A stretch of DNA of 8,416 nt from IMG/VR virus record IMGVR_UViG_2728369185_000004; one strand, 5' to 3'. Positions 2,813 to 8,162 of the stretch are shown one piece after another. This stretch comes from a virus. Its lineage: Duplodnaviria; Heunggongvirae; Uroviricota; Caudoviricetes. A model generated the notes under the pieces. It searched no databases. It had not been told where the DNA came from and saw only the letters and a program-made list of their open reading frames with translations. Position 1 is the stretch's first letter. Each line of letters starts with the position of its first letter. The position numbers were made by a program, and so were the translations under genes.

Positions 2813-3678
2813 TTAGAACTGATAAACCAGACCTACAGCGACGATGTCGTCGGTATCAATACCAGCTGTTTTGGTAAACTTACTATCGTCAATTAAGTTG
2901 ATTTTGTAATCAACAAAAGTGGACATGTTTTTATTAAAGTAGTAAGTAGCACCGACATCGACATACTTGACTAAGTCTCGGTCACCATGAACACCAAGGT
3001 CTTTACCTTTTGACTGAAGGTAAGCAACAGATGGACGCAGACCGAAGTCAAACTGATATTGTGCTACTGCTTCAAAGTTTTGTGCTTTGTTTGCAATATG
3101 GTTATTACCAAAAACGGTCATATTCTGAGTTTCAGAATATGTGGTAGCCAGATAGATATTGTTCGCATCATATTTCAGGCCTGCAGCCCATACTTCCGCA
3201 TTTTTGCCGGAGGCATTGAATTTGCTCTTACCATAGGCGACCTGACCGTCAGTGCGATCTGATTTAGCATAGGTTGCACCCACGCCGAATCCTTCATACT
3301 CATAAGTAGTGGAGAAACCGAAACCATCACCATTGGCTTCAGTTACGTCAGTGCGGTCATTTTTACCCTGATACTGAGCAGCAAAGTTCAGGCCATCGAC
3401 CAGACCAAAGAAGTCGTTGTTACGATAAGTTGCAACACCAGTAGTGCGACCAGTCATGAACACATCTGTTTGGGTCCAGGTATCACCACCGAATTCTGGC
3501 AGAACGTCAGTCCACGCACCGATGTCGTATGCTACACCGTAGTTACGGCCGTAATCGATTGAGCCGTAATCACCAAATTTCAGGCCTGCAAATGCAAGAC
3601 GGGTTTTGTCTTTGGAAGAACCTTGAGATTCAGCACGGTTGCCTTTGAATTCATATTCCCACTGACCGAAACCAGTCA
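2813..3678 (-). CDS. nmpC: OmpC/NmpC-family outer-membrane porin, 3' end intact, 5' end runs into the N gap
   Basis: Minus-strand translation is continuous from 3678 to stop at 2813: ...[80 protein letters not shown]...AVGLVYQF, with hallmark porin motifs and the C-terminal YQF. The track start at 3463 is an internal GTG. About 70 N-terminal residues including the signal peptide are unaccounted for. Confidence 0.85.
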
Positions 3679-3771
3679 NNNNNNNNNNNNNNNNNNNNNN
3701 NNNNNNNNNNNNNNNNNNNNNNNNNNNNNNNNNNNNNNNNNNNNNNNNNNNNNNNNNNNNNNNNNNNNNNN
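3679..3771. other. Run of 93 N (unresolved or masked sequence)
   Basis: Literal n characters in the sequence, interrupting the porin 5' region. Confidence 1.
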
Positions 3772-4197
3772 TGTACGCCCTTTTTTTGAACTATTATTAA
3801 AAAATGATGTCACTGCGCGATAAATATTCATCTAATCAATGTGATTATTTCAAGATGTAAGTTTTAGTTTCTCATTTAATTTGTGAAGTAGATCTCTATT
3901 TTTATCTGAACCTTTTCTATCTAATCCTATTCATGGCTCTTGTCTGAACAAAAATAAATCTATTAGCTAATTTATATTAATGGCACTTATTTATAAGTGC
4001 TCTATAATTCTTTAGCTTAATTTAAACAAACTAAAAATAACATCGGAAATTATTAACTGGTTATTTGTTGAAGTTTTCTTATGCATTTGTGGTGGTGTTT
4101 TGAACACTCGGTGGCATTCTCACAAATATCATTTAGTAGTTTACGTACGTAAAAAATTGGTTATGCTGTTAAGAGTGGTTACTTCGTCACACAGCTT

Positions 4198-4575: not shown

Positions 4576-5072
4576 TGCCTCCATCATTACGAAAAGCCGT
4601 TGCTGCTGCTATTGGTGGCGGAGCAATTGCTATAGCATCAGTGTTAATCACTGGCCCAAGTGGTAACGATGGTCTGGAAGGTGTCAGCTACATACCATAC
4701 AAAGATATTGTTGGTGTATGGACTGTATGTCACGGGCATACAGGAAAAGACATCATGCTCGGTAAAACGTATACCAAAGCAGAATGCAAAGCCCTCCTGA
4801 ATAAAGACCTTGCCACGGTCGCCAGACAAATTAACCCGTACATCAAAGTCGATATACCGGAAACAATGCGCGGCGCTCTTTACTCATTCGTTTACAACGT
4901 GGGTGCTGGCAATTTCAGAACATCGACGCTTCTTCGCAAAATAAACCAGGGCGATATCAAAGGCGCATGTGATCAGCTACGTCGCTGGACATATGCTGGC
5001 GGTAAGCAATGGAAAGGTCTCATGACTCGTCGTGAGATTGAGCGTGAAATCTGTTTGTGGGGTCAGCAATGA
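4575..5072 (+). CDS. rrrD: SAR endolysin (signal-anchor-release lysozyme, phage 21 R-type)
   Basis: N-terminal Gly/Ala-rich SAR segment ([20 protein letters not shown]) followed by a T4-lysozyme-like catalytic region (E...D...T spacing, ...[25 protein letters not shown]...). ATG 4575 overlaps the holin stop TAA. Confidence 0.9.
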
Positions 5073-5530
5073 ACAGAGTAACCGCGATTATCTCCGCTCT
5101 GGTTATCTGCATCATCGTCTGCCTGTCATGGGCTGTTAATCATTACCGTGATAACGCCATTACCTACAAAGCCCAGCGCGACAAAAATGCCAGAGAACTG
5201 ACGCTGGCGAACGCGGTAATTACTGACATACAGATGCGTCAGCGTGATGTTGCTGCGCTCGATGCAAAATACACGAAGGAGTTAGCTGATGCGAAAGCTG
5301 AAAATGATGCTCTGCGTGATGATGTTGCCGCTGGTCGTCGTCGGTTGCACATCAAAGCAGTCTGTCAGTCAGTGCGTGAAGCCACCACCGCCTCCGGCGT
5401 GGATAATGCAGCCTCCCCCCGACTGGCAGACACCGCTGAACGGGATTATTTCACCCTCAGAGAGAGGCTGATCACTATGCAAAAACAACTGGAAGGAACC
5501 CAGAAGTATATTAATGAGCAGTGCAGATAG
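5069..5530 (+). CDS. rzpD: Rz i-spanin
   Basis: [23 protein letters not shown]... has an N-terminal TM segment then a coiled-coil-rich periplasmic domain. ATG 5069 overlaps the endolysin stop (ATGA). The track start at 5057 is an alternative-codon extension. Confidence 0.85.
5289..5471 (+). CDS. rzoD: Rz1 o-spanin lipoprotein, embedded in the +1 frame of Rz
   Basis: [60 protein letters not shown]: lipobox LVVVGC and proline-rich mature part, essentially lambda Rz1. RBS gaaggag 7 nt upstream. Confidence 0.85.
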
Positions 5531-5561: not shown

Positions 5562-5855
5562 TTATTGTGAGCAATACACACGCGCTTCCAGCGGAGTATA
5601 AATGCCTAAAGTAATAAAACCGAGCAATCCATTTACGAATGTTTGCTGGGTTTCTGTTTTAACAACATTTTCTGCACCACCACAAATTTTTGCTGCATCG
5701 ACAGTTTTCTTCTGCCCAATTCCCGAAACGAAGAAATGATGGGTGATGGTTTCCTTTGGTGTTACTGCTGTAGGTTTGTTTCCAACAGTAAACGTCTGTT
5801 GAGCACATCCTGTAATAAGCATTGCCAGAGCGGCAGAAAACAACATTTTTTTCAT
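5562..5855 (-). CDS. borD: Bor lipoprotein (serum-resistance moron)
   Basis: MKKMLFSAALAMLITGCAQQTFTVGNKPTAVTPKETITHHFFVSGIGQKKTVDAAKICGGAENVVKTETQQTFVNGLLGFITLGIYTPLEARVYCSQ matches lambda Bor, lipobox LITGC. Start chosen at the ATG with an AGGA RBS; the track ORF to 5903 is an extension. Confidence 0.85.
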   Translation of the reverse strand: MKKMLFSAALAMLITGCAQQTFTVGNKPTAVTPKETITHHFFVSGIGQKKTVDAAKICGGAENVVKTETQQTFVNGLLGFITLGIYTPLEARVYCSQ

Positions 5856-6335: not shown

Positions 6336-6662
6336 ATGAAAAGACGCCTTTTACTACTTTTTCTGTTATCTGTCCTGGCAGTGGGATGCTCGCAGCAAAA
6401 AGCTGATGAGCCCCGGCAATTAGTGACGGTGTATCCACGATATCCGGAATATGCTGCAGCAAATTATATCAAGGGGCTGGTTGAGGTTAAGTTCGATATT
6501 GGTGCTGATGGGACTGTGACACGGATCGTTTTTCTCCGCTCAGAGCCTCATAATTTGTTTCGTGATGAAGTGGTGAAGGCCATGGCGAAATGGCGATTTG
6601 AAAAGAATCGCCCCTGTCAGGGAGTGAAGAGACAATTTATCTTTACGCCGTCACGTCCTTGA
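6336..6662 (+). CDS. Lipoprotein with TonB C-terminal-like domain (prophage moron, function unknown)
   Basis: From ATG 6336: signal peptide MKRRLLLLFLLSVLAVGC with lipobox LAVGC. The mature part YPRYPEYAAANYIKGLVEVKFDIGADGTVTRIVFLRSEPHNLFRDEVVKAMAKWRFEKNRP aligns motif for motif with the E. coli TonB C-terminal domain ([59 protein letters not shown]). RBS taggaa at 6325-6330. Confidence 0.6.
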   Translation: MKRRLLLLFLLSVLAVGCSQQKADEPRQLVTVYPRYPEYAAANYIKGLVEVKFDIGADGTVTRIVFLRSEPHNLFRDEVVKAMAKWRFEKNRPCQGVKRQFIFTPSRP

Positions 6663-6784
6663 TGCTTCCAGGTAGAGAGGGGCTGGAAGCAGGAGAAAAA
6701 TGAAAGAGCCAGCGGTTATATTTTTGTCATGGCTGACGAGGAATGATGGAAGAAGGCGTTGTATGCCACACAACGCCTCACTGT

Positions 6785-6964
6785 TCATTTCTTCTTTTTC
6801 TCTGGTGGAACCCGATGAATAAGAGTTGCACTGGTTTCCGATGAGATGGCGATATACTCGGGCAAAGTATGCTGGCAGTTTTCCAACTGGTCAAAAATAC
6901 CTGCTCTCGTCTGTTGCAATGCCTGCAGCATGCGGCGGCAATGCGCCTTGCTTTTACTAACCAT
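6785..6964 (-). CDS. Hypothetical 59-aa protein
   Basis: MVSKSKAHCRRMLQALQQTRAGIFDQLENCQHTLPEYIAISSETSATLIHRVPPEKKKK. Strong RBS on the minus strand (GAGGAAGGAAAG just upstream of ATG at 6964). It is the 3' part of the 117-aa track ORF 6785..7138, whose own start has no RBS. Confidence 0.35.
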   Translation of the reverse strand: MVSKSKAHCRRMLQALQQTRAGIFDQLENCQHTLPEYIAISSETSATLIHRVPPEKKKK

Positions 6965-7025
6965 CTTTCCTTCCTCTATCAGTCGCTGCGTGAACTCATC
7001 ATGGAATACCAGGTAAATGCGGATG

Positions 7026-7277
7026 TTATCGGTTTTGGCTACGCAGCATAGTACAAAACGGACAGGTGCATCCCGGGACGGGGGAGGCGTCACATGTCCC
7101 TGTGATGGTTGTTCCGGGTAATGTACTGTGTGGGGCATAAAAATGTCCGATAATTTTACTTTCTACCGCAGTTAGTTGATTCGTTGGTCCTGGTAGCACA
7201 TTGGGCGAGGATTTAAATGCCAGGCAACTGAAGGATGATGTCGCAAGGGAGATAGCGAGAATATTTCTGATTTTCAT
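7026..7277 (-). CDS. Hypothetical small secreted Cys-rich protein (83 aa precursor)
   Basis: From ATG 7277: MKIRNILAISLATSSFSCLA|FKSS... has a signal-peptide-like N-terminus. The mature part ends in a Cys cluster TGTCDASPVPGCTCPFC. AGAGG RBS about 10 nt upstream. Sits 60 nt upstream of the 59-aa ORF, suggesting a two-gene unit. Confidence 0.3.
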   Translation of the reverse strand: MKIRNILAISLATSSFSCLAFKSSPNVLPGPTNQLTAVESKIIGHFYAPHSTLPGTTITGTCDASPVPGCTCPFCTMLRSQNR

Positions 7278-7425
7278 TTGATGATGCCTCTGTGTGAAAT
7301 GACGGTAAACGACGCACTTGTGCCGGCACATAATAGCAAGCACCATAATAGATCAGATTCGATTCTTGCTGTAAGTGATAATTATTCTCGTTTTCGGGTC
7401 CTTTCCGTCGATCCAACAGGTTACG

Positions 7426-7437
7426 GGGCGGCGACCT
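7426..7437 (+). other. cosN: 12-nt cohesive-end sequence GGGCGGCGACCT, identical to lambda
   Basis: ttacg|GGGCGGCGACCT|cgcgg at 7421-7442 matches the lambda right-end/left-end junction; flanking bases also resemble lambda (CGCGGTTTTTCACTATTTATGAAAATTTT). Confidence 0.75.
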
Positions 7438-7471
7438 CGCGGTTTTTCACTATTTATGAAAATTTTTCAGG

Positions 7472-7589
7472 GAAAATCGTGTCGGTACTTCTCGAATATA
7501 ACTTTTTGTTTTTTTTAATATTGCATCCGTAAAGGTCCGACATGAAAGTGTCCGAAAATGCCTTTTTCTGGCGTTTTCATGTCGGGCCT
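7472..7589 (+). promoter_or_regulatory. cosB-like terminase small-subunit binding region (repeated R-type elements)
   Basis: Inverted pair aggtccgacatgaaa (7532-7546) and tttcatgtcgggcct (7574-7588), 14/15 complementary, plus a related copy on the opposite strand at 7474-7489 (cgtgtcggtac). Lies between cosN and the small-subunit gene, as lambda R3/R2/R1 do. Confidence 0.5.
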
Positions 7590-7613
7590 TGTATTTGATA
7601 ATGGGTTGTTTTC

Positions 7614-8162
7614 ATGAAGGTTAATAAAAAGAGGCTTGCCGAAATTTTCAACGTGGACCCGCGGACGATTGAACGCTGGCAGTCTCAGGGACTCCCTTGC
7701 GCCTCCAAAGGTAGTAAGGGCATTGAATCTGTATTTGATACTGCCATGGCAATTCAGTGGTATGCGCAGAGGGAAACTGATATCGAAAACGAAAAGCTCC
7801 GCAAAGAACTGGACGATTTGCGTGCGGCAGCGGAGTCAGATTTACAACCCGGCACCATTGACTATGAACGCTACCGGCTCACAAAAGCGCAGGCAGATGC
7901 GCAGGAACTGAAAAATGCCCGTGAAGACGGAGTAGTGCTGGAAACTGAACTGTTTACCTTCATTCTGCAACGTGTGGCACAGGAGATTTCGGGGATACTT
8001 GTGCGTGTGCCGTTGACATTACAGCGTAAATATCCGGACATTTCACCATCACACCTTGATGTGGTGAAAACTGAAATCGCGAAAGCCTCCAATGTTGCAG
8101 CTAAGGCCGGTGAAAACGTGGGCGGGTGGATCGATGATTTCAGACGCACAGAAGGCAGCTAA
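7614..8162 (+). CDS. nohD: Terminase small subunit (Nu1-like)
   Basis: [104 protein letters not shown]... closely parallels lambda Nu1, including the N-terminal winged-HTH region. Confidence 0.9.

Follow-up and report, generated by a model that had tools for sequence, protein, structure and literature searches.

What is encoded between the bor gene and cos at the right end of phage 21-type prophages? The window, that is, the whole stretch of 8,416 nucleotides analyzed here, contains in this place a 760-bp interval with contradictory annotations: the phage 21 record and PGAP place open reading frames (ORFs) on the plus strand, the PhiR57_1 record annotates minus-strand ORFs of 117 and 67 aa, and the gene denoted here as orf83 is called by none of them. 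A preliminary description of this DNA proposed instead an uncharacterized two-gene unit on the minus strand, formed by orf83, a signal-peptide-bearing cysteine-rich ORF of 83 aa, and orf59, a 59-aa ORF preceded by a ribosome-binding site; it might be a toxin/immunity-like or exclusion module, and the coding status of both ORFs was considered unproven. Here we describe which of these ORFs is a gene, to what family it belongs, and what its product may do.

The Locus and Its Landmarks

The features of the locus are listed in Table 1. The landmarks agree with the earlier suggestion that the bor-cos interval is an accessory, or moron, slot: bor/iss lies on one side of it, and the end of the phage 21 record and Nu1 on the other. 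The two ORFs of the proposed unit are indeed found in the places given for them, the stop codon of orf83 (7026-7028) being separated by 61 nt from the ATG of orf59. Both are internal-ATG products of longer ORFs; the product of orf83 is MKIRNILAISLATSSFSCLAFKSS...TGTCDASPVPGCTCPFCTMLRSQNR.

Table 1. Features of the window discussed in the text (positions are those of the whole stretch)
Feature	Position	Strand	Comment
Porin gene	2813..3463	-	ompC/nmpC-like
N run	~3680-3780		assembly gap or masked stretch
bor/iss	5562..5855	-	
TonB C-terminal-domain lipoprotein gene	6282/6336..6662	+	
40-aa ORF	6700..6822	+	phage 21 record (CPT_21_74); probably spurious
GC-rich hairpin, 9 bp	6755..6778		AGGCGTTGT / ACAACGCCT; between the convergent TonB_C gene and orf83; read from sequence
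orf59, 59 aa	6785..6964	-	ATG at 6964; lineage-specific ORF, probably no functional gene
117-aa ORF	6785..7138	-	contains orf59
60-aa ORF	6869..7051	+	WP_000881610.1 (PGAP), CPT_21_75 in the phage 21 record; probably spurious
orf83, 83 aa	7026..7277	-	coding gene; precursor of a small four-cysteine protein, predicted to be exported
106-aa ORF	7026..7346	-	contains orf83 (internal ATG at 7277)
Four-cysteine motif, aa 60-80	7038..7100	-	G-T-C-x-A-x-P-V-P-G-C-x-C-P-F-C-T-M-L-R; from the 26-sequence alignment
Sec-type signal peptide, aa 1-20	7218..7277	-	predicted; signal-peptidase I cleavage between CLA and FK
Shine-Dalgarno candidate GAGG	7287..7290	-	9 nt before the orf83 ATG; read from sequence
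Extended -10 candidate for orf83	7330..7338	-	TGCTATTAT; found by eye, weak, unproven
Fur-box-like site	7377-7395		GAAAACGAGAATAATTATC
cosQ	7396-7402	+	annotated in the phage 21 record OL657228
Phage 21 record end / virion right end	7425		
Cohesive end	7426-7437	+	GGGCGGCGACCT; phage chromosome end adjoining orf83
Nu1	7614..8162	+	

Positions 6600-7620 of the window match the right end of phage 21 (OL657228) at 100% identity, as they do prophages of CFT073, Nissle 1917, ATCC 25922, and many other strains. The full stretch 6663-7430 was found, at no less than 97.8% identity, in 1222 E. coli genomes out of 5426 complete ones. Sharing elsewhere is confined to the last ~60 bp by cos, where CGGGGCGGCGACCTCG begins at position 7424.

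Several non-coding elements were considered. The hairpin between the TonB_C gene and orf83 is unchanged between the two alleles of the interval described below and may possibly be a transcript end; it was not called in the terminator scan because it has no adjacent T-run. The Rfam scan of positions 6500-7650 yielded sub-threshold noise only, and the prophage small RNA svsR, from the phage 21-site prophage of NC101, maps to cI, outside the orf83/orf59 interval. The sole Fur-box-like site of the window lies beside cosQ and matches GATAATGATAATCATTATC in 15 of 19 positions. Phage lambda has a better one at the equivalent place (GTAGATGATAATCATTATC, 16/19), and sites of this kind are found in other lambdoid cos regions as well. 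We therefore rejected it as an orf83-specific operator: since it is present in lambdoid cos regions that lack the gene, this element is tied to cos.

Two further observations concern the neighborhood. The phage protein encoded just before the interval consists of a TonB C-terminal domain only (PF03544, E=1e-12) and looks like a lipoprotein (lipobox LAVGC); its PHROGs class, 'Rz-like spanin' (phrog_1267), looks like a mislabel, and the protein might compete with TonB at outer-membrane receptors. The N run, which produces X in the translations of ORFs across it, is situated between the porin gene and the late promoter with the lysis region.

orf83 Is a Protein-Coding Gene

The database contains 22 homologues of orf83 (55-98% identity, nearly all of 82-84 aa) from E. 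coli, several subspecies of Salmonella, Klebsiella, and Citrobacter. At the DNA level we compared ten diverged versions from unrelated contexts in E. coli, Salmonella, Citrobacter, Klebsiella, and Buttiauxella. The orf83 frame is open to the same stop in all ten, whereas each of the other five frames contains 2-8 stops. The median Nei-Gojobori dN/dS is 0.155 (pN about 0.2 and pS about 0.7, the latter often saturated), versus 1.25 and 1.95 in the shifted frames of the same alignment, and the variable columns are distributed over the three codon positions as 45/38/78. Blastn homology across contexts is confined to positions 7285..7024, from 8 nt before the ATG through the stop codon. These observations show that orf83 is a real protein-coding gene: with 22 homologues and purifying selection, the cysteine-rich ORF singled out in the preliminary description is a genuine one.

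The signals for its expression are less distinct. What the different contexts have in common upstream is confined to the ~8 nt next to the ATG. The candidate -10 element is kept in a diverged allele. Upstream of orf83 the consensus promoter scan detected nothing convincing as a sigma-70 site, and the phage copy is only presumed to be expressed.

Could orf83 be a decaying pseudogene, a passenger in non-coding cos-flanking DNA? The absence of a clear promoter and of the Zur box, whose apparent loss is described below, would fit this explanation, as would the polymorphism within E. coli, although the 4 synonymous and 5 nonsynonymous changes in 80 loci (31 haplotypes) are too sparse to show selection. 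However, the same 80 loci contain no indels and no nonsense mutations in orf83, so that the ORF is intact in all of them, unlike the neighboring non-coding-like sequence, which gathers both indels and stops. The high identity of the interval in the 1222 genomes also argues against decay, as does a second E. coli lambdoid lineage (L017), which has an intact copy, 71% identical to orf83, in the same slot. We consider the pseudogene explanation quite unlikely.

Other ORFs of the Interval Are Not Conserved

The situation with orf59 is different. It has only four database matches, all near-identical, and tblastn finds it in phage 21-type DNA only. A second allele of the interval, common in E. coli, is marked by a 48-aa remnant product (P0024) on 486 contigs. 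Here insertion of an A at 6950 breaks the orf59 frame after codon 5, and the orf59 start codon and ribosome-binding site open a frame of 24 aa only. In the 80 loci (31 haplotypes) orf59 has accumulated 2 synonymous and 7 nonsynonymous changes and two frameshifts, including a deletion of A at 6799, and this polymorphism looks neutral-like. Its full-length match to PHROG 4843 (E=4e-47), a group without assigned function, provides no independent support for coding, since the group appears to be built of the same ORF called in near-identical prophages. The Pfam scan of orf59 gave no match at E<=1, PF13132 (DUF3950/YlcI) included, and a relationship to DUF3950 was rejected, the pairwise score being reached by 675 of 2000 shuffled sequences. 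Thus orf59 is probably a chance-like ORF and not a functional gene. The doubt about coding status initially attached to both ORFs can be lifted for orf83, with its conservation and low dN/dS, and is justified for the lineage-limited and frameshifted orf59.

The ORFs annotated in public records fare no better. A case for reading the plus-strand 60-aa and 40-aa ORFs or the minus-strand 117-aa ORF as the real genes, and orf83 as an overlapping artefact, can be made from the fact that PGAP and the phage 21 and PhiR57_1 records call them and never orf83, and that the plus strand is the late-transcribed one. But the 117-aa, 60-aa, 40-aa, and 67-aa ORFs are all found by tblastn in phage 21-type DNA only, and the frames corresponding to the annotated ORFs are among those closed by stops in the orf83 homologues. 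Moreover, natural alleles disrupt them: 22 or more of the 80 loci carry the nonsense mutation E46* (7004) in the 60-aa ORF, which is also shifted by the insertion at 6950, the 40-aa ORF has an allele with E37*, and the 117-aa ORF has E56* together with the same frameshift as orf59. Conservation of this overlapping 117-aa frame, named in the preliminary description as an observation that would speak against the proposed unit, is thus not seen. That the annotated ORFs are the real genes is in our opinion extremely improbable. It follows that between the TonB_C gene and cos nothing but orf83 is conserved as a coding sequence.

orf83 Is a Single Gene in Diverse Contexts

Genes of the orf83 family occur without orf59 in nine other contexts, where DNA homology ends at the stop codon. 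In the E. coli lambdoid prophage L017 the gene stands by Nu1/cos and is followed by a DUF3950 gene. In Salmonella islands the order is PPC, the orf83 homologue, Bor, omptin; in Klebsiella the gene follows a cos remnant. Other copies adjoin icd in C. koseri (L020), lie between fecIR(-receptor) and narLX in Citrobacter, or stand beside azt genes in Enterobacter and Klebsiella. Further ones are found in Serratia, in an integrase-bearing element, and in PagP and Band_7 neighborhoods. In Buttiauxella, too, the gene occurs alone.

The cargo downstream of the gene also varies. In L017 it consists of a 44-aa lipoprotein-like ORF (MKYFALISALLLSAC...; 5345..5479) and the DUF3950 (YlcI-like) gene (5641..5835), so the downstream slot is evidently exchangeable.

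The two-gene hypothesis has to be weighed against these data. The two ORFs are co-oriented and only 61 nt apart, and the ribosome-binding site noted for orf59 is indeed strong, the purine-rich GAGGAAGGAAAG directly preceding its ATG. The Klebsiella copy at the cos remnant even shows a similar arrangement, with a ribosome-binding site and an ATG ~62 nt past the stop codon and a 30-aa ORF of the form MV...K....RML. However, the likeness of this ORF to orf59 is not significant (the score was reached by 300 of 5000 shuffled sequences), and we rejected the relationship. More important, orf59 is missing from all other contexts of orf83 and is frameshifted in a common allele, its polymorphism is neutral-like, and orf83 is stably single in chromosomes. 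Searches against PADLOC (E<=1; orf83, orf59, and the TonB_C protein all without a match), Pfam, NCBIfam, and PDB produced no match of the toxin, immunity, or exclusion type, and no conserved partner gene was seen. A two-gene toxin/immunity-like or superinfection-exclusion module is therefore not supported, given the disruption of orf59 and of the 60-aa, 40-aa, and 117-aa ORFs in natural alleles, and we regard it as very improbable.

A Family of Small Proteins with Four Invariant Cysteines

In addition to the homologues described above, a profile search of 1.84 billion representative sequences produced about 20 more full-length relatives of 79-86 aa, with E-values down to 2.5e-44. Their sources are Enterobacter, Klebsiella, Salmonella, Siccibacter, Serratia, and Pantoea, and none has a name beyond 'hypothetical protein'. 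We aligned 26 sequences of the family, with 27-71% identity. C62, G69, C70, C72, and C75 are invariant, forming the pattern C-x7-C-x-C-x2-C, whereas conservation reaches 90% or more at M1, A20, F21, G60, P66, L78, and R79. The orf83 protein has all the invariant residues. Like the rest of the family, it has a length within 79-86 aa, A/C-x-A followed by F at the end of the signal peptide, glycine before the second cysteine, and L-R after the cluster. Hence orf83 belongs to an unnamed and uncurated family of ~80-aa proteins of Enterobacterales.

Scans of orf83, orf59, and the 26 family members against Pfam, NCBIfam, PHROGs, and PADLOC yielded only phrog_4843 for orf59, so the label 'uncharacterized' given earlier to the 83-aa product was apt: it is covered by no curated family. 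A PDB sequence-profile search with the family gave no match at E<=10, and a literature search by peptide strings found no paper. AlphaFold2 models built on alignments of 20 and 26 sequences had pLDDT of 48.5 and 58.7, and at such low confidence they lend no structural support to any role of the protein.

The signal peptide noted in the preliminary description is borne out by the alignment. The n-region contains K2 and R4, residues 6-20 are hydrophobic, and distant members have ALA, AMA, or AWA followed by FQ in place of CLA followed by FK. We also considered a lipoprotein with SFSC as the lipobox, but the position of Cys18 is occupied by Ala in distant members, and thus the conserved feature is a signal-peptidase I site, AxA before F, and not a lipobox. 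Cleavage at this site and export, as judged from the sequence, would leave a predicted mature protein of 63 residues, four of them cysteines. Conservation within it centers on one helix (ExxIxxxFY) and the C-terminal cysteine cluster; there is no conserved His cluster.

The mini-motif at the C-terminus of the family also exists elsewhere. Two proteins of ~610-630 aa from ENA metagenome contigs of ~2 kb (P0045 and P0047), rich in Asn, Thr, and Ile and having no Pfam domain, contain 4-5 repeats of P-[IL]-P-G-C-N-C-P-K-C-T-x-L-R-N, the same mini-motif as the C-terminal PVPGCxCPFCTMLRS of the orf83 family. It may represent a unit of its own, either structural or metal-binding.

Candidate Zur Boxes Upstream of Chromosomal Relatives

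Representative family genes were scanned 200 nt upstream with the E. coli Zur motif TRWNAYRWTATAWYRTNWCA, as quoted in PMC6103462. In K-12 this motif recovers the sites of znuA/C, zinT, and ykgM with 0, 0, and 1 mismatches, respectively. Upstream of family genes, candidate sites were found with one mismatch in one locus of the P0035 type (L111) and with two mismatches in another (L107), as well as in Buttiauxella (L015), C. koseri (L020), Serratia (L030), and two loci of the P0040 type (L123 and L133). Sites in Citrobacter (L010) and in two loci of the P0037 type (L120 and L122) have three mismatches to the full motif, and these groups have only 1-2 mismatches to the core palindrome ATGTTAT-N3-ATAACAT. 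In all 205,784 nt of the representative loci there are 13 sites with at most two mismatches; three of these are the Zur sites already known, and seven precede family genes. The remaining background is by our own arithmetic ~0.003 per 200-nt upstream region, and thus chance comes nowhere near to explaining the enrichment at family genes. As the neighbors of the P0040 and P0037 lineages are unrelated, the box belongs to the family gene itself.

The genomic neighborhood points in the same direction. The chromosomal lineage of the P0035 type in Enterobacter and Klebsiella adjoins aztD (E=3e-137), aztC, and the ABC transporter subunits of the zinc importer aztDCBA, and genes of this type also follow paralogues of dihydroorotase (pyrC) and porphobilinogen synthase (hemB). 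Zinc-independent paralogues of the latter two are typical members of zinc-starvation regulons. Based on these data, the chromosomal members of the family seem to be repressed by Zur, with the reservation that predicted Zur boxes need experimental proof (PMC6103462).

The mobile copies differ from the chromosomal ones. Within 200 nt upstream of orf83 in the window the Zur box is absent: the closest match to the motif has 6 mismatches, and the surroundings contain no core palindrome. The best sites have likewise 6 mismatches at the Klebsiella cos remnant, 5 in the Salmonella islands, and 3-6 in integrase-bearing elements of the P0032 type. Since the phage 21, Salmonella island, and P0032 types of mobile subgroups have no box, the link to zinc may not apply to the window copy.

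Two observations concern other copies of the gene. In the lambdoid prophage L017 the sequence GGTTACGTGTTAACGTAACA at 4942-4961, 59-40 nt before the orf83 homologue, has three mismatches to the Zur motif and agrees with the ykgM Zur box of E. coli, GGTTATGTTATAACATAACA, in all but 4 of 20 positions; it may be a decaying remnant of an ancestral Zur operator in a phage-borne copy. The chromosomal copy in C. koseri, which bears a Zur box, lies directly by icd, the gene that contains the phage 21 att site in E. coli (PMC12803456); this could be a coincidence or a trace of phage acquisition.

Possible Function of the orf83 Protein

Taken together, the data are best explained, and rather probably so, if orf83 is a lysogenic-conversion moron copy of a gene from a family of periplasmic proteins that is repressed by Zur and induced by zinc limitation, Zur control having been lost in the phage, and if the remaining ORFs in 6663..7025 are non-conserved by-products. 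In this scheme, orf83 would be a self-contained moron at the right end of the phage 21-type prophage, antisense to the late operon. The Sec signal peptide would direct export of its product, signal peptidase I would cut after CLA20, and a periplasmic protein of 63 residues would result. The chromosomal ancestors would be repressed by Zur and induced when zinc is limiting; it is the chromosomal Zur boxes and the azt/pyrC/hemB neighborhood that make such induction the most likely one for the family. Since the phage copies appear to have lost the box, a lysogen would produce the orf83 protein independently of Zur. The most likely role suggested by these considerations is a periplasmic or envelope response to zinc scarcity.

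The four cysteines may bind Zn(II) or another metal, or may form two disulfides. In known zinc-binding proteins of the periplasm the ligands are His, Asp, and Glu, not Cys, and therefore disulfides are favored in this oxidizing compartment. A more specific version, in which phage 21-type prophages carry a deregulated gene of the Zur regulon whose product captures zinc, passes it on, or in some other way helps the envelope to adapt when zinc is short, is at present doubtful.

The main rival explanation, possible but not the one that we favor, is that the orf83 product is a disulfide-knotted periplasmic effector or inhibitor aimed at a lysozyme, protease, amidase, or receptor, with the zinc link being purely regulatory. 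The phage would then carry orf83 to modify the envelope of the lysogen, as it does with Bor. Four invariant cysteines in an exported protein of 63 residues are consistent with this, and so is the company of envelope-related genes, namely Bor, omptin, and PPC in Salmonella and Bor/Iss, the TonB_C lipoprotein, and the porin in the window. The E. coli Zur regulon includes pliG (PMC6103462), and its product, a Zur-regulated lysozyme inhibitor, provides a precedent. On the other hand, the Pfam, NCBIfam, PHROGs, and PDB searches revealed no sequence or structural likeness to any inhibitor family, and neither a target nor a conserved partner gene is apparent.

These results have several consequences. 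The phage 21 GenBank record and the CFT073 RefSeq record leave the conserved orf83 unannotated and show in its stead, on the other strand, an ORF that lacks conservation, which calls for a concrete correction, the more so as the carriers of orf83 include the textbook phage 21 and the model strains CFT073, Nissle 1917, and ATCC 25922. The family is a new one, without a Pfam or NCBIfam model, and its chromosomal members are strong candidates for a component of the enterobacterial response to zinc starvation. If the phage copy is expressed, it represents a new type of cargo for the bor-cos moron slot in prophages common in extraintestinal and probiotic E. coli. If it is indeed a deregulated zinc gene, lysogens, which make up ~1200 of the sequenced E. 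coli, would gain a Zur-independent advantage under the nutritional immunity of the host.

Comparison with Known Systems

Both a moron in the bor-cos slot and a periplasmic protein of the Zur regulon are of known kinds; it is the orf83 family itself that is uncharacterized. The closest analogues in position are the Bor/Iss morons of lambdoid phages, which have in common with orf83 the slot, the orientation antisense to the late operon, a self-contained unit of the size of one gene, and an envelope protein product that is exported (for orf83, predicted to be). The bor gene is moreover physically linked to a gene of the orf83 family both in the window and in the Salmonella islands. The two proteins have no sequence relationship, and Bor has the lipobox of a lipoprotein, in contrast to the signal-peptidase I site of orf83.

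With ZinT, PliG, and the zinc chaperone AztD the chromosomal relatives of orf83 share predicted export and Zur-box-like palindromes of the quality of the ykgM and zinT sites, and one lineage of the family neighbors aztD-aztC. There is no homology between these proteins and orf83, and the phage copy in the window has no Zur box. ZinT, PliG, and AztD are also far larger than the 63-residue mature product of orf83, and ZinT and AztD bind zinc via His and Asp, whereas the orf83 family offers four cysteines only.

Finally, small size, encoding by a phage, and export (for orf83, predicted) are also features of the exclusion lipoproteins Cor and, in phage T5, Llp, which are produced in the lysogen or infected cell; Llp contains a disulfide. 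Both are lipoproteins acting on FhuA, while the orf83 family has no conserved lipobox cysteine and, unlike Cor and Llp, includes chromosomal genes that have no relation to phages.
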